DNA of 35,529 bases from a virus. Its lineage: Duplodnaviria > Heunggongvirae > Uroviricota > Caudoviricetes. A program made the translations under genes and the position numbers. This document shows positions 1-16,018 of this stretch, piece by piece. Below the pieces are notes generated by a model, which saw nothing but the letters and a program-made list of their open reading frames with translations, searched no databases and was not told the DNA's origin. The stretch lies in the IMG/VR virus record IMGVR_UViG_2529292912_000010; one strand, given 5' to 3'. How positions within the stretch are numbered: the first letter of the stretch is position 1; every line of letters begins with the position of its first letter.

Positions 1-1284
1 TTACAGACTTCTGGAAGGTTGCGCAGCTCTTACAACACGCGGTTGATCTTCCGCAGCGTCTTCCAGCGCACTTAAATCACGGTCTTTCACCTCTGGCATT
101 TTCAGCGCAGAGATTAAACCAATTACTGAATATGCCATGATCATAATGGCGATCGGATACCAGGATTCCGTCATGGTGCAGAAAATACCCGCCAGGATAG
201 GACCAAAACCGGAAGCGATAAGACCACCAATTTCTTTAGAAATAGCCATCCGGGTAAAGCGGTTTTTACAGCCGAACATTTCTGCCATGGTAATGTTTTC
301 CAGAGCAAATAATCCCAGCACCGCACAGTTATGAATCACAATCAGTGCAACCATAATGGTGCTCGGGGCATAGCTTTTATCTACAATGATAGAAAGCATT
401 GGCCATGCCAGCACAATCGCGGAGGTATTCATAATAATATACGGGATCCGGCGACCAATTTTATCGGATAACCAACCAAGGAACGGAATGGTCATAAAGC
501 CGAGAATCGAACTAATCATCAATGCATCTGTTGGAATTGCTTTGTTAAACAATAACGTCTGCACTAAATAGCCTGCAAGGAAAGTCTGAATTAACCCGGA
601 GTTACCCGCCTGACCAAAACGCAGCCCTGTTGCCAGCCAGAAGGATTTGCTCTGGAACATGCTACCAGCAGGTGCAGGTTTTGCTGTGGGTTGGTTGCTG
701 TCATTAACCTTCTCAAAGACCGGGCTTTCTTTCAGATTCATACGTAACCAGATAGCAAAGACCATCACGACAACGCTCGCCAGGAACGGTATACGCCATC
801 CCCACGCCAGCAGTTCCTCTTTACTGAGAATGAAGAACATAAAGGCCCAGATTGCCGTTGCGCTCAAGGTTCCGCAGTTAGTTCCCATAGCCACAAATGA
901 GGAGATAATTCCGCGCTTACCTTTTGGCGCATATTCCGCCAGCATCGTACCGGCACCGGAAATTTCCGCACCTGCACCCAACCCCTGAATAATACGCAAC
1001 GTCACCAGCAAGATGGGTGCAAAAACACCAATCTGTGCATAGGTCGGTAACACACCAATTAAGGTGGTACAGATCCCCATCATGGTGATGGTAATAAAGA
1101 GCACTTTTTTACGCCCTATTCTGTCGCCCATTTTGCCGAAAATAAATGCTCCGACAATACGCGCCACATAACCTGCACCGTAGGTTCCCATTGCCAGAAT
1201 TAACGCCATTGCCGTTGATGATTCAGGAAAAAATATTTCATGAAACACTAACGCTGCGCCGAGCGAATATAACTGGAAATCCAT
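1..1284 (-). CDS. ydfJ: MFS-family transporter (putative metabolite:H+ symporter), 427 aa, complete
   Basis: Full-length ORF with stop at 1-3; multiple hydrophobic helices; MFS loop motif G-x-x-x-D-R-x-G-R-K (GKMGDRIGRKKV) after the second helix. Position relative to ydfK/pin matches my recollection of the E. coli ydfJ-ydfK-pinQ neighbourhood. Confidence 0.85.
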   Translation of the reverse strand: MDFQLYSLGAALVFHEIFFPESSTAMALILAMGTYGAGYVARIVGAFIFGKMGDRIGRKKVLFITITMMGICTTLIGVLPTYAQIGVFAPILLVTLRIIQGLGAGAEISGAGTMLAEYAPKGKRGIISSFVAMGTNCGTLSATAIWAFMFFILSKEELLAWGWRIPFLASVVVMVFAIWLRMNLKESPVFEKVNDSNQPTAKPAPAGSMFQSKSFWLATGLRFGQAGNSGLIQTFLAGYLVQTLLFNKAIPTDALMISSILGFMTIPFLGWLSDKIGRRIPYIIMNTSAIVLAWPMLSIIVDKSYAPSTIMVALIVIHNCAVLGLFALENITMAEMFGCKNRFTRMAISKEIGGLIASGFGPILAGIFCTMTESWYPIAIMIMAYSVIGLISALKMPEVKDRDLSALEDAAEDQPRVVRAAQPSRSL

Positions 1285-2070
1285 AATTCACAGGTGTTTT
1301 TTCCCATCCTGTGGTTTCCTTGGCGTTTTCTAGGTTTTTTCAGATAGTTGCATTTTTTAAAAAGCATCCTAAGTTCGATCTCAGTGTCTATCTGGGGCCT
1401 ATTTCTGTCCCATATATGCCCCAAAAAAAACTCCCCAACAGATAAGTAGTTTTTTCATGGATTTATGCGTAAAATCAAGAACGGCTGGAAATCATTCAAT
1501 ACTCACACTATCGAAAAATTTACCAGCCAACCGCAGCACGTTCTTGCATAAGGCGTGTCTGCGGTTTTTCAACTATTCAGATACATCACTCCCATCACAT
1601 TCATTCCTCCGCATCAAAGGCATATAGGCTATATCACCTTGATATTTTTATTTTTCAGATAAAAACTGTTATCTATGTATACTTTTAAACCCAATCCGTG
1701 TAGAGTCTCTGCATAAGATAGTTTGCAGTTGCCGCTTCAGCTTGCGCCATAAACCGCCTGATTTTTGCTGCCACCTGTTAGCATTCCTGTATACCTGAAA
1801 CGACAATGTTTATCTACGAACTTTAAGAACACCCAAGATAAAAATTGTCAACTATATCATATATAACACATTACTAATTCGAGGCTATATGAACAGCATA
1901 CTGATAATCACATCTCTCCTTATCATATTCAGCATTTTTAGTCATGCCCTAATAAAATTAGGGATTGGCATATCCAATAACCCAGACAAAACCGATGTAT
2001 AAGTCAACATATCCTGAATCAGACATACAATATCGCAATGAAAATCAATAATATTTTAAGGAATATCTTC

Positions 2071-2304
2071 ATGAAATCAAAAGACACCCTAAAGTGGTTC
2101 CCTGCGCAGCTTCCTGAAGTAAGAATTATCCTAGGGGATGCTGTAGTGGAAGTAGCAAAACAGGGAAGACCTATCAATACCAGAACATTGCTTGATTACA
2201 TTGAAGGAAACATAAAGAAAAAATCATGGCTGGATAACAAAGAATTATTACAAACAGCGATATCAGTTCTTAAAGACAACCAAAATTTAAATGGTAAAAT
2301 GTAA
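2071..2304 (+). CDS. ydfK: Small prophage protein of the YdfK/YnaE family (reported cold-shock inducible), 77 aa
   Basis: ORF track gives 88 aa from an upstream ATG; the internal start MKSKDTLKWFPAQ gives the 77-aa form I recall for YdfK. Lies immediately upstream of the pin recombinase, same strand. Confidence 0.6.
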   Translation: MKSKDTLKWFPAQLPEVRIILGDAVVEVAKQGRPINTRTLLDYIEGNIKKKSWLDNKELLQTAISVLKDNQNLNGKM

Positions 2305-2620
2305 TATAATAAACTTACTTTTTTATCATTTTTCCACTTTAACAACATTTTGCTCCACTTTTCCACGACCAAACAACTTGAAATCTGGTTAAAATAACAC
2401 GCAACACTATTCTTCTTCCTTGAGTCCGCCCGGAACTCGAAAAACAAACCGAGTTAAAGCCATTTTTCACAAAATCGATTTTGGGTCTCACCAAAATTAC
2501 GGGGTTGCATACGCATTCGTTTATTTTCGAACGTGTACATACAAATATGCACAAAAATAATCAAAATTATTTTCTGAGATGCATTATGATATGAACACCA
2601 ATTTCGTATAGAGTCTCACT

Positions 2621-3211
2621 ATGTCTCGAATTTTTGCTTACTGTCGGATATCAACGCTGGATCAGACCACCGAAAATCAACGCCGGGAAATCGAAAGTGC
2701 AGGTTTTAAAATCAAACCTCAGCAAATAATCGAAGAACACATTAGCGGCTCAGCAGCAACCAGTGAGCGTCCTGGTTTTAACCGGTTGCTTGCTCGCCTG
2801 AAATGTGGTGATCAATTGATTGTGACAAAACTGGATCGCCTTGGTTGTAATGCAATGGATATCAGGAAAACAGTGGAACAACTGACCGAAACAGGTATCA
2901 GAGTGCATTGCTTAGCATTGGGGGGCATTGACCTGACCAGTCCAACAGGAAAAATGATGATGCAAGTAATTTCAGCAGTCGCTGAATTTGAACGAGACCT
3001 TTTACTTGAACGCACTCATTCCGGGATAGTAAGAGCCCGGGGCGCAGGGAAACGTTTTGGTCGACCACCTGTGTTAAATGAAGAACAGAAACAGGTGGTA
3101 TTCGAACGAATTAAGTCAGGTGTAAGTATAAGTGCCATTGCCCGGGAATTCAAAACCTCGCGGCAAACCATTTTAAGAGCCAAAGCAAAACTTCAGACAC
3201 CTGACATATAA
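2621..3211 (+). CDS. pinQ: Serine recombinase, resolvase/invertase family (putative DNA invertase), 196 aa
   Basis: N-terminal catalytic-serine motif (YCRISTLDQ), resolvase-like core, C-terminal helix-turn-helix ([18 protein letters not shown]). Adjacent to the tail fibre genes, as for Gin/Pin-type invertases. Confidence 0.85.
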
Positions 3212-3308
3212 AAAATAATCTCGGTGTGAGATGCTTTACGTCTTCCAAGCCACCTTCCTTGCCGTAAATGGAAAGATACATCTAATTATAGAATTTATAT
3301 GTTTTACC

Positions 3309-3884
3309 CTACGGCAGTGCTGGCCATTCAATATCCTGTGCAGTTGACGTATCAACACGGTTCAGCAATACCCGATACTTTTTCCATGCTTCCAGCAACG
3401 AGATTTCTTCCTCCGTTGCAATTTCCAGATCTGCAGCATCCTGAAGCGGCGCAATATGCTCACTGGCTACCTGCATCAGGCTGTTTTTTGTTTCTTCCGC
3501 CTCCCGGATCCGGAACAGTTTTTCTGCTTCCGTATCCTTCACCCAGGCTGTGCCGTTCCACTTCTGATATTCCCCTCCCGGCGATAACCAGGTAACATTT
3601 TCCGGTAACGGACCGAGTTCAGAAATAAATAACGCGTCGCCGGAAGCCACGTCATAAACCGTTTTACCCCGATGATCTTCAACGAGATGCCACGATGCCT
3701 CATCACTGTTGAAAACAGCCACGAAGCCTGCCGGAATATCTGGCGGTGCAATATCGATACTGTTTGCTGGCAGACCTGTATGAGGCGGAATATATGCGTC
3801 ACCTTCACCAATAAATTCATTAGTTCCGGCCAGCAGATTATAAATTTTTATGGTCCGTGGTTGTTCACTCATTCTGAATGCCAT
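3309..3884 (-). CDS. tfa: Tail fibre assembly protein (Tfa), 191 aa
   Basis: 191-aa ORF directly downstream of stf with stop/start overlap at 3884; sequence matches the lambda Tfa (orf-194) family as I recall it. Confidence 0.85.
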
Positions 3885-6800
3885 TATGCAAGCCTCACAA
3901 TATAGTTAAATGCGATGTTTTTGACGGTGTTTTCCGCGTTACCAGCAGCGTTAACGGTGATGGTATGTCCATGTGAACCAATCGCAACGGAGTGCGTATG
4001 AGCACCAATACCGACAGTATGTGCGTGTGCACCTGCGCTTGCAGCAGTACCCGATACAGAGTGCGTATGAGCGCCTGCAGAAGAAGTGTTAACACTGTAT
4101 TTAGAGTAATCAGGTGATCCACTTCCCGGAGCACCACTGGAACCACCTGAAACAAATGTCATCGAATGGGTATGTGCACCGGCTGAAGCAGCCGTACCGC
4201 TAACACTATGGGTATGCGCACCAGTGTTATTCGTGGATTTAGTGCCGTAATCAAACGACGATGTGGTTTTCGTCCCCAAATCCGTACTGGATACGCTGGC
4301 GCTGTGGGTGTGTGATTTAATGCCGTCCTGTTCCTGAGACAATACGGCTCGATCACTGGCGGGCTTGCCCTTAATCGTCCAGCCACGCATATCAGGGATC
4401 ACGCCTGACGGATAAGCGGCTGCAAGTTTCGGGTAAGCAGATTTGTCAAAAGTCTGCCCCTGCATCAGGGCATAACCAGACGGAACGGTATCTGATGGCC
4501 ACGGGATTGGTGCACCGACTGGATAAAACTCTGCAGGAGGATGAGCCGAGGTGTAAAGCTGCGCCCACGGCGACCAGTTTGCGTCGGTCGTATCCCGTCG
4601 TGAACGAATAAATGCCGGAGCATGAGCACCGCTTGTACCACTCCAGCCGATGAGTAACTCACCTTCGCCAACGGCTGTCATCCCTTTCAGGTGAATGATA
4701 TTTCCATACGCTGTTGGATATCCGTTGTTATACACCTCGTATAACTCAAGACCTGTTGCCCCCTGCGTATTGTCTGTCAGCGCGGTTACCCGACCTTTTG
4801 AAGACAGATTAACTGATGATACTGCTGTTCCACCTGACGGTAACGCCCCGATCTCTGATGCCGTTGGCTTATTTCTGGAGTTATAGTCCCTTCGCCAGCC
4901 AGGTGAATAATCTGTTCCGTGATTAATATAGGTAAACTGGGCGTTAGTTGTTCCACCACCAGTGGAGGTGGTCGGTGTGGTAATGCGGATCGTCATCGCT
5001 GACTTTATCCCCATTACTTCAATGACAGCTCCGGCGAGATGAATATTACCGCAGCCAGTATCAGTAATGATTTTATTATTGCCATAAGACCAGGAACCCT
5101 TGCACATCCAGTATGGATGGTTAAATGCTCCCTGAGAATCCAGCCACTCGATAAACTGTGCAGTCGTCCAGTTTCCTGTTGTTGTGCTTACTGACCCACC
5201 GAAGGCACGGCAGGCACCAATATTTTTCGTAAAGGTGTCTTTGCCAGGGATATCCGCACCGTTCTGATCTTTCTGCAGACGTTTCTCAGCATTGTCATTG
5301 ACTGCTTTCACTGCTTTCGATGTCGCAGCAAGCGTTTCAGATGCGCTGTTGGTTGCACTACTGAGCTGGACAATTCCTTTTTGTGCTGTCGTAGCGTCCT
5401 GAGCGGTATATTTCCCGTTAGCCAGGTCATACGCGGCCTTAACGGCTTTTGGCGTTGCCGCCAGTGACTCGGAAGTGCTGTTGGTCGCACTGCTGAGCTG
5501 TACTATCCCCTTTTTCGTCGTGCTCGCATCCTCAAGCGCCACGGCGGATGCAATATCCTCTGCCCGTTTTGCTGCTGTCTCGGCGCGCGTTGCCGCGGAT
5601 TCCGCCGTACTTTTGCTCTGAGCTGCCGCCGTCGCACTACCAGCTGCCTCTGTCGCCTTCGTGGATGCCGTCGTGGCGCTGCCTTTCGCTGCTGATGCCT
5701 GTCTGGTCGCCTCATCTTTTGAAGCAGACGCAGATGATGCCGATGACGCCGCCGAACTGGCGGACGATGCGGCAGCCGTTTTTGAGGATTCTGCGCTGGT
5801 TTCCGACGCTTTCGCGTTCGTCTCGGATGTCTTCGCTGCGGAAGCAGACCTCGCTGCTGCGCTGGCCTGTTCAGTGGCTTCGCCAGCCTTCGTTGTGGCT
5901 GTTGAAGCGGACGATGCGGCGCTTTCTGCCGATTTTCCGGCGGCGCTAGCACTGGCTGAGGCCTGCCCGGCACTTGTTGACGCTGCACTGGCAGACGACG
6001 CAGCCGCTGTTTTTGAGCCTGCCGCAGCTGAGGCACTCTGTTCCGCTGCCGTTTCAGAAGACCTGGCGTTTGTCTCAGACGTCTTTGCCGCCTTCGCGGA
6101 ATTGCCTGCCGCCGTTGCCGAGGAAGCGGCACTACTGGCGCTCGAGGATGCGTTCGTTTCTGATGATTTCGCTGCCTCTTTTGAGGCCGCCGCATCCCGG
6201 GCTGAGGTGGCTGCTTCTGACGCCTTCGTGGTCGCGGCGGATGCAGAAGTGGCTGCTGATTGTTGTGACGCTGCCGCATTCGTTTCTGACGTTTTCGCCG
6301 CAGCGGCACTGGTAGCTGCCGCGCTTTTTGAGGACTCTGCAGCAGCAGCACTTTTCGATGCTTCACTGGCCTTTGTTGATGCCGTTCCTGCGCTGGAAGA
6401 TGCTGACTGAGCCGACGACGCGGCCTGTCCGGCTGACGTGCTGGCTGCGCTTGCTGAGCCTGCAGCATCAGTCGCATGGGTTGCCGCCTCACGGGCTGAT
6501 GTGCCGGCATCGCTGGCTGACTTCTTCGCGGCTGCCGTGTTCTGTGCCACCACGGACGCGTTACGCGCCACCTCTTCCACCATCAGCTCAAAACGGCGCA
6601 GTGCCTCCGGACGGGCATCATCCTCCGTCATGGCACCGAGAAAATCATTCAGCGTACCGGGTCGGGAATCTTCATACACTGTGATGGTCCCGGCATGTGA
6701 CGGCGGGAATCCTTCCACCAACAGAATAACGCTGTACTGACCGTACTCAACGTCCATACTGTAACGCCCGGCTTCATCCGGATTTTCAGATGCCAGCGTG

Positions 6801-6907
6801 TTCACCACCACCGTGGTACTGTTACGTTTTGCTTTCAGCTGGATTGTGCAGTTCTGTACCGGTTTTCCTGTGCCGTCTTTCAGTACACCTGAAATTTTTA
6901 CTGCCAT
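3884..6907 (-). CDS. stf: Side tail fibre protein (Stf), about 1007 aa
   Basis: N-terminus [27 protein letters not shown] matches lambda Stf; ORF track starts two codons earlier at a GTG. Long Ala/Ser/Thr-rich repeat region, two phage tail-fibre repeats ([12 protein letters not shown]...LAAT.KAVKA), and a His-rich C-terminal tip with repeated GAHTHS motifs. Confidence 0.9.
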
Positions 6908-6916
6908 ATTCACCCC

Positions 6917-6945
6917 ACAAAAAAGCCCGCCTGAACCGGCGGGCT
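6917..6945 (-). terminator. Intrinsic terminator-like hairpin between lom and stf
   Basis: Minus-strand reading GCCCGCC-GGTTCA-GGCGGGC followed by TTTTTTGTGG; ends a few nt before the stf ribosome-binding site. Confidence 0.6.
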
Positions 6946-6971
6946 GTCATAACACTGTGTTACCTGGCTAA

Positions 6972-7571
6972 TCAGAATTTATAACCAACACCCACGATGA
7001 ACCCGTCAGTGCGCCAGTCACCACTGCCGGAGCCTTCATAAGCGACATCAATGGCCACGGATTCGGTCGGGTTAAACTGCACGCCAGCTCCCCACGCCAG
7101 AGACGTGTTGCTGTGGCGACCGTCATCACTTCCGGTCAGCACATCGTGCTTTTTCCCCTTGTTGTCAGTTACGCGGAGATAATCCCCGGAGAAAGTCGAC
7201 ACACGGCTGTAAGCCACACCCGCCATCGCATACGCGCTGAACCATTCATTCACGCGCACAGACGGCCCCGCCATTACGCTGAACCAGCGGTTACGAACGG
7301 AATCTTCATGCCAGCGGGTATCGCTGTAACGGGTAATCTGGCGATTCTTGTCTCCTGCATAGCTGAACGACGTCACCATCCCCAGTGTGTCCGTAAACTC
7401 ATAACGGTATTTCACGTTAATCCCGTTCAGATCATCACTGCCGGGAACGTTCGTCCGGGCATGAAGATACCCCGCGCTCAGCGTGGACTGATGTTCAGAC
7501 GCCCATGCAGGCGCACCGGATACGGCCAGACAAATGGCTGCGGACAAAATGGCGGCATAAAGTTTACGCAT
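6972..7571 (-). CDS. lom: Outer-membrane beta-barrel protein Lom (Ail/Lom family), 199 aa
   Basis: Signal peptide ([24 protein letters not shown]), alternating beta-strand pattern, C-terminal aromatic residue (ends GVGYKF); sits between J and stf as in lambda. Confidence 0.85.
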
Positions 7572-7593
7572 AATTACCTCTCGCTTTTCTGCA

Positions 7594-7619
7594 ATAAAAA
7601 AGGCGTCATTTCTGACGCC
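7594..7619 (-). terminator. Intrinsic terminator-like hairpin between J and lom
   Basis: Minus-strand GGCGTCA-GAAA-TGACGCC followed by TTTTTTATT, about 26 nt upstream of the lom ATG. Confidence 0.6.
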
Positions 7620-7637
7620 CGTTCTGGGTTATAAAAT

Positions 7638-11039
<3,402 letters not shown>

Positions 11040-11096
11040 TCATGCTCCATAAACGATAAAACCGCCCGGAGGCGGTTTCACATAAAACATTTTGCA

Positions 11097-11768
11097 TCAG
11101 CGACCAATCACCACAACCTGACCACCATCCCCTTCGTCTGCCGTGCTGATCTCCTGAGAAACCACCCGCGACCCCACGCGCATTTCACCGTACAGAACAG
11201 GCAAAACATTGCCCTGGGCAACCATGTTATCCAGTGAGGAGAAATAGGTGTTCTGCTTACCGTTATCCGTTGTCTGTGTACGGGGAGTTCTGGCTTTCGG
11301 TGCCAGCATCTGCGCCACACCACCGAGCACCATACTGGCACCGAGAGAAAACAGGATGCCGGTCATACCACCGGCCCCAATGGCTGCCCCCCATGCTGCA
11401 AGGGTGGCTCCGGCGGTAAAGAATGATCCGGCAATGGCGGCAGCCCCCAGGACAATCTGGAATACGCCACCTGACTTGGCCCCGGCGACTCTGGGAACAA
11501 TATGAATCACAGCGCCATCAGGCAGAGTCTCATGTAACTGCGCCGTTAACCCGGACGTGCTGACGTCCCGCCCGGCAATCCGTACCTGATACCAGCCGTC
11601 GCTCAGTTTCTGACGAAACGCCGGGAGCTGTGTGGCCAGTGCCCGGATGGCTTCAGCCCCCGTTTTCACACGAAGGTCGATGCGGCGACCAAATCGTTGT
11701 AAATCCCCGTAAAGGCAGATGCGCGCCATGCCCGGTGACGCCAGAGGGAGTGTGTGCGTCGCTGCCAT
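11097..11768 (-). CDS. I: Tail assembly protein I, 223 aa
   Basis: 223 aa, same length as lambda I; overlaps the 3' end of K in another frame as in lambda. Confidence 0.9.
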   Translation of the reverse strand: MAATHTLPLASPGMARICLYGDLQRFGRRIDLRVKTGAEAIRALATQLPAFRQKLSDGWYQVRIAGRDVSTSGLTAQLHETLPDGAVIHIVPRVAGAKSGGVFQIVLGAAAIAGSFFTAGATLAAWGAAIGAGGMTGILFSLGASMVLGGVAQMLAPKARTPRTQTTDNGKQNTYFSSLDNMVAQGNVLPVLYGEMRVGSRVVSQEISTADEGDGGQVVVIGR

Positions 11769-12409
11769 TTGTCGGTGTACCTCTCTCGTTTGCTCAGTTG
11801 TTCAGGAATATGGTGCAGCAGCTCGCCGTCGCCGCAGTAAATTGCGGCGTGATTCGGCACCGATGAACCAAAACAGCACAGCAGCACATCGCCCGGCTGT
11901 GCCGCTGACAACGGCACCTGATACAGCCCCGTCGCCTCCAGATTATCCAGATAGAGATTCTGGCCGTTACGCCACCAGTCATCCTCACGATGAAAGTCCG
12001 GCATCTCAATCCCCGCCAGATGATAAGCATCCCGGAACAGTGTGTAACAGTCCGTCACACCGTGCTCAAAGCGCCGCCCGGTGAGATGCGGCACACAGCG
12101 GAACTTATGAATCGTCCCCCGGCAGACCAGCCACCAAGGCAAATCACTCTGCACCTGCAGCCGCCGGTCGGCCTCACTCAGCCAGGGCAGACCACCGGGG
12201 TGGCTGTGGACCAGCGCCACAATCTCACCCTGCATTTCTGCCTGCAGCCAGTCTTCCGGCGACATACGGAAATACGCCTCCGGCTCACCGGAGATATTCA
12301 CGCAGGGGAAATATCTTTCCCCCTCCGGCGTGCTTACCACGAAGCCGCACGACTCCGCTGGCGCACATCGCCGGGCGTGCGCCAGAATCGCTGATTCTGT
12401 CTGTGTCAT
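11666..12409 (-). CDS. K: Tail assembly protein K (Mov34/JAB plus NlpC/P60-like), 247-aa ORF; the start giving the 199-aa form I recall for lambda K is at 12265
   Basis: HSHP metalloprotease-like motif (ALVHSHPGG) and a conserved Cys/His region; ORF begins 6 nt after the L stop. Internal Met 49 (MSPEDW) would give 199 aa. Confidence 0.85.
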   Translation of the reverse strand: MTQTESAILAHARRCAPAESCGFVVSTPEGERYFPCVNISGEPEAYFRMSPEDWLQAEMQGEIVALVHSHPGGLPWLSEADRRLQVQSDLPWWLVCRGTIHKFRCVPHLTGRRFEHGVTDCYTLFRDAYHLAGIEMPDFHREDDWWRNGQNLYLDNLEATGLYQVPLSAAQPGDVLLCCFGSSVPNHAAIYCGDGELLHHIPEQLSKRERYTDKWQRRTHSLWRHRAWRASAFTGIYNDLVAASTFV

Positions 12410-12414
12410 GGGAT

Positions 12415-13113
12415 TTACTGCGAAAGTTTGTTAATGGAAAGGAAGCCGCCAAAGTTGCCGACGTTATTGCGGAACTTACAACCGCTCAGGCATTTGCTGC
12501 ATTTATCCTTCGTGATATCGGACGTTGGCTGGTCATATTCATCCGCGACAGCCGGACCGCTATAACCGCACTCGTCACCGCGATAGGTCCAGGTGCAGGT
12601 GTTGGCCAGCATGATACGTCCCGGAAAAACAGCGCCATCCGTTTCCGTCGGCGTGGACAGTACAAAGGAGGCACTCACCGCGCTCAGTTCGCTGCACTGC
12701 TCAATGCGCCAGCGGCTGATCACCTCCTGCTCCGGATCGGCGCCACTGTTTCCGTTGACGAAGTTCACCGCATCCAGAAAACGGGCGTAAACCTTACGCC
12801 GGACCACCGTTCCACCGACCAGACTCTGCAGATCTTCCGCCATCCCGGTGACCATACCGTACAGGTTAGAAACCGTCAGTGTGGGGCGCGTACTGGTGCC
12901 TTTGCCATTCAGTTCAAAACCACTCCCCTGAATGGGATACGGCTGATACTGTCGCCCCTGCCAGGTGACCGGCTCACCTTTTTCGTTCTGCTCATTACAG
13001 AAAAAATAACGTTCTCCACCGACCTCTGTCAGGTCGATTTCCCAGAGCACCACGCTGGCCGACTGCTCCGCACGGGTGCATTCATTCAGTGTTTCCTGCC
13101 GGATATCCTGCAT
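12415..13113 (-). CDS. L: Tail tip protein L, 232 aa
   Basis: 232 aa, same length and position as lambda L; Cys-rich C-terminus (CSKCLSGC). Confidence 0.9.
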   Translation of the reverse strand: MQDIRQETLNECTRAEQSASVVLWEIDLTEVGGERYFFCNEQNEKGEPVTWQGRQYQPYPIQGSGFELNGKGTSTRPTLTVSNLYGMVTGMAEDLQSLVGGTVVRRKVYARFLDAVNFVNGNSGADPEQEVISRWRIEQCSELSAVSASFVLSTPTETDGAVFPGRIMLANTCTWTYRGDECGYSGPAVADEYDQPTSDITKDKCSKCLSGCKFRNNVGNFGGFLSINKLSQ

Positions 13114-13442
13114 CAGTTCACCACCTGTTCAAACTCTGCGCTGAACTCAACACGCAGCATACTGACCCGCGACGACCATTTTGCGCAGGTCACCTTTATC
13201 TGCCGCCACTCATAAGGCGGCGTCCACAGAAAGGCTTTCCAGCCCCCGTGCTCAGCCAGAAACGACTCCAGCGCCGTGGCCTCCCAACGGGGAACAGAAA
13301 GCGTCACGCTGTACGTTTTCAGGTCGGCATTCAGCCCGGCAGGCGCTCGCTGGGAATAGCCATCACCAAAGCGCACTTTCCTGACGGAAGGGGCCGAAGC
13401 CACATCCATACCGGGTTTCACTTTCCAGCGGAAGGTCTTCAT
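13113..13442 (-). CDS. M: Tail tip protein M, 109 aa
   Basis: 109 aa, same as lambda M; start overlaps the H stop. Confidence 0.9.
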   Translation of the reverse strand: MKTFRWKVKPGMDVASAPSVRKVRFGDGYSQRAPAGLNADLKTYSVTLSVPRWEATALESFLAEHGGWKAFLWTPPYEWRQIKVTCAKWSSRVSMLRVEFSAEFEQVVN

Positions 13443-16018
13443 CGTTCACCTCCGGAGAACAGACCACCATCGCGCATCTGTGCCTGAATTTCATCACGGG
13501 CACCTTTGCGGGCCATGTCATACACTGCCTTCATCATCTGTGGACCTGGCAGACCATTCGTACCGTCGTTCTGAATCACCACGTGATTGTTCTGATTAAA
13601 ATTAATGCCTTCAGCCCGCCGCATCTGCGCCGGACTTCCGGCACCGCCCACATAACCACCTTCCGCATAGCCCCGCATCAGGCGGTACAGGTTGCCGACA
13701 CCAATTCGGCTGGTTGCCTCCTTCGTGAAGACAAATTCACCACGGTGAACAATCCCCGCTGGCTCATATTTGCCGCCGGTTCCCGTAAATCCTCCGGTTG
13801 CAAAATGGAATTTCGCCGCAGCTGCCTGAATGGCTGTACCGCCTGATGCGGATGCGCCGCCACCAACAGCCCCGCCAATGGCGCTACCGATACTCCCGAC
13901 AATCCCCACCATTGCCTGCTTAAGCAGAATTTCTGTCATCATGGACAGCACGGAACGGGTGAAGCTGCGCCAGTTCTGCTCACTGCCGGTCAGCATCGCC
14001 GCCATATTCTGCGCAATACCATCAAAGGTCTGCGTGGCTGCACTTTTAACCTGCGACATACTGTCCGTGGCGCTCTCTTCCCACTCACTCCAGCCGGACC
14101 TGAGGCCTGCCATCCAGCTCCCGCGAAGCTGGTCTTCAGCCGCCCAGGTCTTTTTCTGCTCTGACATGACGTTATTCAGCGCCAGCGAATTATCGCCATA
14201 CTGTTCCTTCAGGCGCTGTTCTGTGGCTTCCCGCGCTGCCTGCCGGTCAGTAAGCCCCCGGTTTTTCGCCTCAATGGCTGCCCGTTTTGCCCGTTGTTGC
14301 TGTGCGAACTTATCCGCCTGCTGCGCCAGCGCGTTCAGGCGCTCCTGATACGTAACCTTGTCGCCAAGTGCAGCCAGCTGGCGTTTGTACTCCAGCGTCT
14401 CATCTTTATGCGCCAGCAGGGATTTCTCCTGTGCGGACAGCTGGCGACGTTGCGCCGCCTCCTCCAGTACCGCGAACTGACTCTCCGCCTTCCACAAATC
14501 CCGGCGCTGCTGGCTGATTTTCTCATTTGCTCCGGCATGCTTCTCCAGCGTCCGGAGTTCAGCCTGAAGCGTCAGCAGGGCAGCATGAGCACTGTCTTCC
14601 TGACGATCGCCCGCAGACACTTTCACGCCGGACTGTTTCGGCTTTTTCAGCGTCGCTTCATAATCCTTTTTCGCCGCCGCCATCAGCGTGTTGTAATCTG
14701 CCTGCAGGATTTTCCCGTCTTTCAGTGCCTTGTTCAGTTCTTCCTGACGGGCGGTATATTTCTCCAGCGGCGTCTGCAGGCGTTCGTAAGCCTTCTGCGC
14801 CTCTTCGGTATATTTCAGCCGTGATGCCTCAGACTCGGCCCAGTCCTTTGCTGCCATCTCTCTGGCCTTTTCAAGATCGGCCTGCAACGTGGCGGCTGAA
14901 AGCCCAAGTTGCGCATTCGCTCTGTCCTCCCATGCTCCCCGGAGATTGGCAAGAAATGCTGAGGTTTTACCGCGCCGGTGGCTCCGGCTCTGATACCACT
15001 GCCATTTTTTGTCCGCCTCATCAAAAGCCTTTTCTGCTTTCTCCAGCATTCCCTGGGCAGTGTCCGGGCGACCAATATCCAGCACCGAATCCCACATGGA
15101 TTTGAATGCCCGTGCTGTCCTGTCTGCCCTGGTCTCCAGCGTGCCCATGTTCTCTTTCAGGCGGCGGGTCTGGTCATCAAACCCTTTCGTTGCGGCCTCG
15201 TTCGCCGCCTGCAATGCCCCGGCTTCATCTCCGGAACGCTGCAACTGAGCAACATACGCAATCTGCTCCGCCGTCACGTTATGGAACTGACGTGCCATCG
15301 CTGTCAGTCCCGACGTCGGGTCTGTGGTCAGCTTCCCGAAGGCTTCAGCGACCTTGTCCACCTCCACGCCGGATGCAGAGGAGAAACGCGCCACACTCTG
15401 GCTGATCGCCTCAAACTGCTCACCACCACGCACACCGGCATTCACCAGCGCCGTCAGTGACTCGCTGGTCTGGTTAAACGTCAGCCCTGCCGCCTGCCCG
15501 GCTCTGGACAGGGCCAGAATACGATCTGCCGTCAGTCCCGCCTGATTGCCGGAAAGGACCAGCGTTTTGTTGAAATCGGACAGGGTTGAGTTGCCCTGAT
15601 ACCAGGCATACGCCAGCGCACCGGTCGCCACCGCCAGCGAGGTGGCCCCCACCATCGGCAGGGTGATCGCACCGGCAAGCCCCCTGAACATGGGGATCAT
15701 CCCGCCGAAGGAGTCCTTAACCTGACCACCCTGTTGCAGCAGGATCAGCCACGGACTTTGCCCGCCTGCAAGCTGCGTGGCCACGTCGGTGAACTGTGCA
15801 GGCAGCATACGCATGGCGGCTTTATACTGCCCGACGGAAATCCCCGCTTTCTGTGCAGCCAGCGCCTGTCGGCTCAGCGACTGTTCAACGACTGCCGCTG
15901 TTTTTTTCGCATCAGTTTCCGTACCGGAAAAATGACGCCTGACTCTGGCCATCTGCTCGTCAAATCTGGCCGCATCCAGACTTAAATCAACGACCAGATC
16001 GCCTACCGGTTCAGCCAT
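13439..16018 (-). CDS. H: Tail tape-measure protein H, 859 aa
   Basis: Long, largely alpha-helical, charged ORF with a Gly-rich hydrophobic segment near the C-terminus; N-terminus MAEPVGDLVVDLSLDAARFDEQ matches lambda H as recalled. Confidence 0.95.
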   Translation of the reverse strand: MAEPVGDLVVDLSLDAARFDEQMARVRRHFSGTETDAKKTAAVVEQSLSRQALAAQKAGISVGQYKAAMRMLPAQFTDVATQLAGGQSPWLILLQQGGQVKDSFGGMIPMFRGLAGAITLPMVGATSLAVATGALAYAWYQGNSTLSDFNKTLVLSGNQAGLTADRILALSRAGQAAGLTFNQTSESLTALVNAGVRGGEQFEAISQSVARFSSASGVEVDKVAEAFGKLTTDPTSGLTAMARQFHNVTAEQIAYVAQLQRSGDEAGALQAANEAATKGFDDQTRRLKENMGTLETRADRTARAFKSMWDSVLDIGRPDTAQGMLEKAEKAFDEADKKWQWYQSRSHRRGKTSAFLANLRGAWEDRANAQLGLSAATLQADLEKAREMAAKDWAESEASRLKYTEEAQKAYERLQTPLEKYTARQEELNKALKDGKILQADYNTLMAAAKKDYEATLKKPKQSGVKVSAGDRQEDSAHAALLTLQAELRTLEKHAGANEKISQQRRDLWKAESQFAVLEEAAQRRQLSAQEKSLLAHKDETLEYKRQLAALGDKVTYQERLNALAQQADKFAQQQRAKRAAIEAKNRGLTDRQAAREATEQRLKEQYGDNSLALNNVMSEQKKTWAAEDQLRGSWMAGLRSGWSEWEESATDSMSQVKSAATQTFDGIAQNMAAMLTGSEQNWRSFTRSVLSMMTEILLKQAMVGIVGSIGSAIGGAVGGGASASGGTAIQAAAAKFHFATGGFTGTGGKYEPAGIVHRGEFVFTKEATSRIGVGNLYRLMRGYAEGGYVGGAGSPAQMRRAEGINFNQNNHVVIQNDGTNGLPGPQMMKAVYDMARKGARDEIQAQMRDGGLFSGGER

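Follow-up and report, generated by a model that had tools for sequence, protein, structure and literature searches.

Which DNA does a serine recombinase act on when it lies beside phage tail-fibre genes and no invertible segment accompanies it? This question is raised by the pin gene (2621–3211, plus strand), which encodes a protein of 196 aa with Resolvase and HTH_7 domains (Pfam, E 2.5e-36 and 3.8e-11, respectively), in IMG/VR record IMGVR_UViG_2529292912_000010. These 35,529 nucleotides, hereafter the window, come from Escherichia coli and represent a lambdoid prophage of the Qin/Rac type that is inserted beside ydfJ. Neither the gene nor its arrangement is new, both being known as pinR/pinQ of E. 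coli prophages; the window protein is identical to PinR of strain K-12 and differs from K-12 PinQ at 2 residues. Both genes have long been annotated as prophage 'DNA invertases', a label that is now carried by thousands of plasmid and chromosomal genes. A first-pass annotation of the window likewise took pin for a Pin-type invertase that ought to flip tail-fibre ends, and left its substrate unclear.

Here, we argue that pin is very probably the relic of a transposase-less Tn3-family element, that its ancestral substrate was its own res site, now eroded, and that its adjacency to the tail-fibre genes is an accident of insertion. The transposon origin of the element is held with high confidence. 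If pinR and pinQ are indeed remnants of Tn3 mini-elements, they are mislabelled as invertases, and the absence of an invertible segment is no longer a puzzle.

Kinship with transposon resolvases and boundaries of the element

A homologue search with the pin protein returned thousands of proteins, many of them 78–85% identical, on plasmids and chromosomes of Enterobacterales; further homologues were found in Vibrio, Methylomonas, Burkholderia, Nitrosospira and other genera. These proteins are often labelled 'resolvase' or, through propagation, 'DNA-invertase from lambdoid prophage Rac'. Resolvases 78–84% identical to the pin protein share an element with a Tn3-family transposase, the two genes standing head-to-head between end repeats of 38 bp. 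A divergent long open reading frame with the Tn3-transposase N-terminal domain (Pfam DUF4158, E 4e-43) starts ~120 bp 5' of the recombinase gene in at least 13 of the fetched loci. On plasmids, the NCBI annotation of this pair reads 'Tn3 family transposase' next to 'recombinase family protein'; at least 80% of the module is covered in 204 plasmid records. Plasmid pOkiPb01709_1 (locus L091) carries the closest relative of the window gene, in the layout tnpA<-res->tnpR-IRR, where IRR denotes the right terminal inverted repeat. On ColV and Klebsiella IncFIB plasmids, the homologue lies among cargo genes with no phage genes nearby.

Complete elements in Leclercia (L013), Scandinavium (L020) and Xenorhabdus (L029) are bounded by the 38-bp repeat GGGGTCCGCTTGGAAAACGGAAAATATCCCACGCTAAG, and those of Xenorhabdus and Scandinavium are flanked by 5-bp target duplications. 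The direct repeat that flanks the complete Leclercia transposon (L013, 2824–9881) reads 6 bp (TCTGAT), compared with 5 bp in the other two. A literature search for the end-repeat sequence, made to put a name to the transposon, found no paper; this Tn3 subfamily, which is widespread on enterobacterial plasmids, is undescribed as far as could be found.

As delimited by its ends, pin sits in a bounded element of 834 bp (2421–3254) with the order left terminal inverted repeat (IRL), res, tnpR, IRR, and without a transposase gene. The degenerate IRL (2421–2458, plus strand) matches the family repeat at 24 of 38 positions and the degenerate IRR (3220–3254, minus strand) at 25 of 38. Each is the top match to that repeat in the window (background mean 9.5, sd 2.6, next best 21). 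At the right end, the best match covers 3220–3257, starting 9 bp past the pin stop, and the tip of IRR carries a 3-nt deletion. The element is abutted by TTCCT on the left (2416–2420) and on the right (3255–3259), as expected of a target-site duplication. Allowing for the tip deletion, the same pentamer directly flanks both ends in K-12 Qin, K-12 Rac, phage HannyBb and an E. coli allele (L011). The weak half-site matches that had been noticed around the gene are thus real, although they are not crossover sites: AAACCGAG (~2444–2451) and CTCGGTGT (3220–3227) are the inner ends of the two Tn3-family terminal repeats. An ATCTC...GAGAT hairpin after the pin stop was considered as a terminator and rejected, as it belongs to the right end repeat. 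A terminator scan of 2250–3350 gave none, and promoter matches in that interval were close to chance level.

A similarly reduced element occurs on ColV plasmids. Homology to the pColV copy covers exactly 2541–3250 at 82% identity, with a weaker alignment back through IRL. The pColV copies, which have an IRR of 38/38, an IRL of 30/38, an intact array and an arginine (Arg) at position 76, share with the window a common transposase-deletion junction, at which site I of the array described below directly follows the left repeat and ~50 bp next to it. Sensitive tblastn 5' of pin gave chance matches only (all E >0.1), and no TnpA-like coding remnant was found in 1300–2620. The better-preserved plasmid mini-elements in L004 (5868–6719, pColV-PU1) and L090 (2845–3696, pLH10-b-1-A) have an IRR of 38/38, an array of 84.6 bits and Arg76; they adjoin an iron ABC-transporter cluster, no target duplication was seen around them, and they may still be mobilisable and active.

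Overall, the close relatives of pin resemble Tn3 and gamma-delta (Tn1000) in several ways. The protein, like TnpR, combines Resolvase and HTH_7 domains in a small serine recombinase, and its close relatives stand head-to-head with a transposase gene, with a multi-part array between the two genes. Moreover, the 38-bp end repeats (GGGG...ACGCTAAG), the 5-bp target duplications and the single site per element, in place of two inverted sites, are shared. In contrast, the window copy has lost the transposase, its end repeats and array have decayed, and cysteine (Cys) stands at the equivalent of R71; the pin sequence itself is only distantly related to Tn3/gamma-delta resolvase (E ~2e-22). IS101 of pSC101 is a non-autonomous Tn3 derivative. 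Like IS101 and TIMEs, the pin element has Tn3-family end repeats and no transposase, so mobilisation would need a supply in trans. TIMEs carry no genes according to a passage in PMC4133298, whereas the pin element keeps a resolvase gene and a res array. In the searchable literature, the transposon origin, the terminal repeats with their duplication, the res model of the family and the Arg-to-Cys change appear to be undescribed; a search for PinR together with TnpR or Tn3 gave annotation mentions only.

A decayed res-like array upstream of pin

The 170 bp 5' of the start codon were aligned in 80 loci, drawn from one-genome-per-species contigs; the array counts given here refer to 72 family loci. 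A half-site, GTMCGAAA, recurs at six fixed positions from the start codon, with the two positions of sub-site I occupied in most of the 72 loci. Sub-site I is an inverted pair with an 8-bp spacer (−113 on the plus strand, −97 on the minus strand), and sub-site II an inverted pair with a 14-bp spacer (−73 plus, −51 minus). Sub-site III is a promoter-proximal pair that follows a TATAAT box (−33 and −20, both minus). The two half-sites of site III are therefore direct, not inverted (upstream regions of L013–L086), a departure from site III of Tn3 as described in textbooks; the second one overlaps a GTAC-centred palindrome in some loci. The sub-sites of the pin subfamily measure 24, 30 and 21 bp, compared with 28, 34 and 25 bp in the res of Tn3. 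By analogy with Tn3 and gamma-delta, this array of the family relatives would be a res site. Together with the end-repeat sequence, the binding-site model (GTMCGAAA, fixed six-site array) is available as a by-product for the plasmid Tn3 subfamily.

The number of sites is also informative. A single site-I dyad, located where expected and with no other within ±6 kb, was found in 49 of 62 loci; shuffled sequence (324 kb) gave none. This is how a resolvase is arranged, with a single site in each element, directly 5' of the gene; invertases come with two. No site-I dyad with a spacer of 4–17 bp was found anywhere in the window. The relative in Erwinia phage LS-2018a (protein 61% identical to that of pin) lacks inverted repeats on its flanks; it nevertheless shows a res-like array, in which a co-varying half-site, GTACTAAA, occupies all positions.

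In the window, the array directly 5' of pin survives as relics on the plus strand. The relic of site I (2509–2532) consists of inverted half-sites ATACGCAT ... TTTCGAAC around an 8-bp spacer, which score 2.4 and 8.0 bits (family medians 12.5 and 16.3). That of site II (2549–2578) has inverted half-sites GCACAAAA ... TTTCTGAG around a 14-bp spacer (5.5 and −2.0 bits; medians 14.8 and 16.0). The third stretch (2585–2609) comprises a putative −10 box, TATGAT in place of the family TATAAT, and the two direct half-sites of site III (1.1 and 12.5 bits; medians 14.1 and 13.8). The assignment of this box to a promoter is suggested by the alignment. Over the 48 nt of the six half-sites, 62 of the 72 loci have at most 8 mismatches (median 3), whereas the window has 13. 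Its summed score is 27.6 bits, compared with a median of 82.7 and a minimum of 53.7 in well-kept family loci. The question of the substrate, which the first-pass annotation had left unclear, is thus answered by the res-like array, with the qualification that it is now decayed; we are moderately confident that the window holds no cis substrate for the recombinase.

Could pin nevertheless be a still-working resolvase that acts on its own upstream site, for example in dimer resolution of a replicating or circularised phage genome? The array, the promoter-like −10 box and the intact frame are all kept, and isolated temperate phages carry the element. However, the summed score lies far under the family minimum. 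The six relic half-sites (ATACGCAT, GTTCGAAA, GCACAAAA, CTCAGAAA, GTTCATAT and ATACGAAA) are all mutated and have no common motif left, which argues for decay and against co-evolution with the protein. Moreover, the L011 allele encodes a protein just two residues away from that of the window and has a different, better-kept array (48.9 bits), which suggests drift. With a cysteine also standing at position 76 of the protein, we consider a working resolvase very unlikely.

The following course of events would account for the locus. A mini-element of the form IRL-res-tnpR-IRR would have inserted into TTCCT just 3' of the tail-fibre operon in an ancestral lambdoid phage, and would then have spread with the ydfK-pin block, which Qin/Rac-type prophages carry. 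If it behaved like the resolvases of Tn3 and gamma-delta, the ancestral protein would have bound the six GTMCGAAA half-sites, which form three sub-sites from −113 to −12 relative to its start codon, resolved cointegrates between two direct copies of res and repressed its own promoter. In the window, the transposase is gone, about one third of the end-repeat positions and all six half-sites are mutated, and one essential catalytic Arg has become Cys. The gene probably persists either by hitch-hiking or because its product binds DNA in some secondary role. An origin as a transposon relic also explains the absence of a flippable tail-fibre segment.

The catalytic arginine and the reported effect on e14

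The window protein reads DRLGC where 72 of 72 other family loci read DRLGR; the codon of Cys76 is TGT (2846–2848). In the alignment to gamma-delta resolvase, Cys76 falls on R71, the equivalent of R68 in Gin. It is common to K-12 PinR, PinQ and an 85%-identical allele (L087) found at the same position beside tfa, indicating that the change is old within the prophage lineage. With respect to the Tn3 catalytic positions Y6, R8, S10, D36, R68 and R71, the pin protein has Y7, R9, S11 and R73, and E39 stands at D36 as in the whole family; the set is incomplete at C76. In Tn3 resolvase, the substitutions R71A and R71K abolished recombination and slowed cleavage ~1000-fold or more (PMC2794168). The protein also deviates from the family at 8 of 98 columns with at least 95% conservation (family median 0, maximum 6), and the ratio of nonsynonymous to synonymous substitution rates (dN/dS) is 0.38 between two Cys76 alleles, compared with 0.03–0.06 among transposon-borne copies. 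Selection thus seems to have been relaxed in the Cys76 prophage lineage, and the protein is predicted to be catalytically weak or dead. It is best filed as a relic or derivative and not as a working resolvase. At the level of the sequence, transposon origin, decay of the sites and the Arg-to-Cys change can be regarded as demonstrated.

Several observations weigh against reading pin as such a relic. The repeats match the family repeat at just 24–25 of 38 positions. Moreover, when an empty target was reconstructed from the flanks and one TTCCT, no spanning record was found in E. coli genomes and phage records, so that the insertion is read from the repeats and the duplication only. Binding and crossover at the array of the family relatives are presumed from analogy. 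The R71 mutants of Tn3 resolvase were termed 'not inert' (PMC2794168). In addition, ~2700 E. coli genomes and isolated temperate phages carry the gene with an unbroken reading frame, and a dN/dS of 0.38 is below 1, so that some constraint, hence some function, may remain. Finally, K-12 PinQ has been reported to invert the 1797-bp P segment of e14, thereby blocking T2 adsorption (Kirigo et al., NAR 2025, PMC12529663). In that study, the P inversion amounted to ~30% in the wild type and 88% with PinQ over-production by quantitative PCR, and pinQ deletion lowered both inversion and survival. A direct effect of PinQ would mean that the protein recombines DNA actively in spite of Cys76.

According to this proposal, PinQ/PinR would be an active invertase working in trans on the pix sites of the e14 P segment, and the flip would make a chimeric tail-fibre-like protein that blocks T2 adsorption. 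The proposal concerns the present function and could hold alongside a transposon origin. T2 survivors over-producing PinQ carry the 1797-bp inversion, and no effect was seen when stfP, stfE or e14 was deleted (PMC12529663). Furthermore, the 11-nt half-sites of family site I (TGTCCGAAACC) and pix (TCTCCCAAACC) share 9 of 11 positions. On the other hand, the two differing positions are among the most informative, and with −3.8 bits on the family matrix the pix half-sites do not exceed random sequence. Aligned on the shared half-site, family site I has a central gap of 4 bp, and invertase sites have one of 2 bp. Cys stands at an essential catalytic Arg position. In addition, deletion of pinE alone locks the P segment though pinQ and pinR are present, and the published strain list includes neither PinQ over-production without pinE nor a catalytic-serine mutant (PMC12529663); these controls leave room for an indirect effect via PinE. 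The distributions also differ, as the pin element occurs in 2741 of 5426 complete E. coli genomes and a collinear K-12-type P segment with pinE in only 170, a count that misses inverted copies (~280–380 near-identical copies, 280 records at ≥99%). The window itself holds no e14. Taken together, we regard an invertase acting in trans as possible, though on the improbable side, and direct catalysis of the P inversion by PinQ appears doubtful from the residues and sites compared.

A further reading, put forward tentatively and judged rather improbable, is that PinR/PinQ is an exapted, catalytically crippled transposon resolvase kept as a DNA-binding protein in about half of E. coli genomes, its reported effects on e14 P-segment orientation and on T2 resistance then being indirect. 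By such a route, PinR/PinQ could, for example, bias the PinE-catalysed inversion or alter gene expression. The alternative to an indirect route is a serine recombinase that works without the arginine equivalent to R71, which would be equally unusual. Fin of Fels-2 is also a prophage-borne recombinase reported to act on the site of another element; it is a true Din-family member, unlike PinQ and PinR. Its action on the Hin H segment is cited in a passage of PMC12529663. The 2025 claim of PinQ-catalysed inversion as an anti-phage defence thus becomes testable, given that the protein lacks the essential Tn3 arginine and that PinE was kept in the published controls.

Comparison with invertases and the tail-fibre neighbourhood

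The window was also searched for what an invertase would need. In 1–14000, no inverted repeats of invertase type were found and only chance-level pairs appeared; e14, taken as a control, has the expected 21-nt repeat, 1797 bp apart. The Din-site core AAACCNNGGTTT, with up to 1 mismatch, gave 2 matches in the whole window (24313 and 27570) against 1.16 expected, neither of them near pin, tfa or stf. The e14 pix palindrome, with up to 3 mismatches, had no match in the window, and the site-I dyad, Din-core and pix scans gave no crossover-type site within stf. These searches agree with the earlier observation that no invertible partner segment and no convincing crossover site accompany the gene. 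The strict Fis consensus GNNYAWWWWWTRNNC had 0 matches in pin and a single one in the window, at 27888; Fis sites are degenerate, which makes this a weak test.

The pin protein shares 38% identity with PinE of e14. Din invertases (Gin, Cin, Hin, Pin) are mutually ~60–70% identical. Among solved structures, the best match is Gin (E 2.7e-29), which is only somewhat better than the match to the gamma-delta and Tn3 resolvases (~2e-22; gamma-delta, 2.4e-22). Like the Din invertases (Gin of Mu, Cin of P1, Hin and PinE of e14), pin has the fold of small serine recombinases, goes by the historical name 'Pin' and lies next to phage tail-fibre genes; inversion of the e14 P segment has been claimed for it in print, and the half-site motifs share an AAACC core. 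Unlike them, it is not flanked by inverted 26-bp crossover sites and has no invertible segment, and its catalytic Arg is replaced by Cys. The orientation differs as well: in e14, the 5' end of pinE adjoins the P segment, its start lying 30 bp from the end of stfE, whereas in the window the 3' end of pin faces tfa. What stands of the earlier description is a small serine recombinase of the kind annotated as pinQ/pinR, and membership of the Gin/Cin/Pin type, set against 78–84% identity to Tn3-linked resolvases, is not supported.

One could still suppose that pin is the orphan of a decayed tail-fibre inversion system, whose invertible segment, with an alternative stf C-terminus and a second tfa, was deleted. 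Its place beside stf-tfa, the names pinQ/pinR and the top structural match to Gin would fit, and e14 has real inversion systems of such a layout. However, the low identity to PinE, the high identity to transposon resolvases, the Tn3-type end repeats with their 5-bp duplication, the lack of a Din-type core near pin, the orientation of the gene and the exchange of the ydfK-pin block independently of the tail-fibre genes make this explanation highly improbable, close to negligible. Kinship, end repeats, gene orientation and block mobility also speak against the premise that pin ought to flip tail-fibre ends.

The mobility of the block is seen in other genomes. The interval 1273–3420 (ydfK, the element and the final ~110 bp of tfa) recurs with 96–99% identity in phage HannyBb and in Escherichia ruysiae, where the ydfK-pin block joins unrelated tail-fibre genes. 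The mosaic junction at 3420, inside the 3' end of tfa, is sharp, with unrelated tail-fibre genes beyond it, and suggests a role of the conserved tfa C-terminus as a recombination joint. Many E. coli prophages carry a matching tfa without pin, in which the homology begins at ~3320. Moreover, ydfK, pin and tfa are collinear on one strand in 2577 of the 5426 complete E. coli genomes, and no inverted arrangement was found among 40 rows sampled across the ranking. Likewise, Kirigo et al. found no inversions by BLAST of Qin and Rac (PMC12529663). The adjacency of pin and the tail-fibre genes mirrors insertion into a non-essential region 3' of the late operon, with no functional coupling.

The neighbours of pin outside the element are tfa (tail fibre assembly, 3309–3884, minus strand; Caudo_TAP, E 9.8e-43) and stf (side tail fibre, 3884–6913, minus; phage_tail_N, Phage_fiber_2 and Collar domains), followed by lom (6972–7571, minus) and a J-like tail tip gene (7638–11036, minus). 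As had been described, there is a single stf-tfa pair and pin lies less than 100 bp from the tfa stop, the gap between the two stops (3211 and 3309) being 97 bp. At 3343–3541 (minus), wholly within the 3' half of the tfa coding sequence, there is a 221-bit match to Rfam family IS009, a small RNA candidate that came out of screens in E. coli; this match may only mirror a family definition taken from K-12 tfaQ/tfaR DNA. Within stf, 5500–6500 (minus) contains Ala/Ser/Thr-rich repeats with a GC content of up to 0.62 and a strongly negative AT skew, and yields long spurious open reading frames in other frames (335 aa and 249 aa).

On the other side of the element lie ydfJ (1–1284, minus) and ydfK (2038–2304, plus), a cold shock protein gene in RefSeq. 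The latter has no Pfam or NCBIfam match, always accompanies the pin element in Qin, Rac and isolated phages, and encodes 88 aa in the window compared with 77 aa annotated in K-12. A small hydrophobic open reading frame 5' of ydfK (1890–2003, plus) appears to match the K-12 small protein YnfT/YnaM. Finally, two cspA-type thermoregulator 5' leaders were found in the low-GC part of the prophage (28425–28809, minus, 116 bits; 31318–31710, minus, 159 bits), which imply that the prophage carries two cold-shock protein genes.

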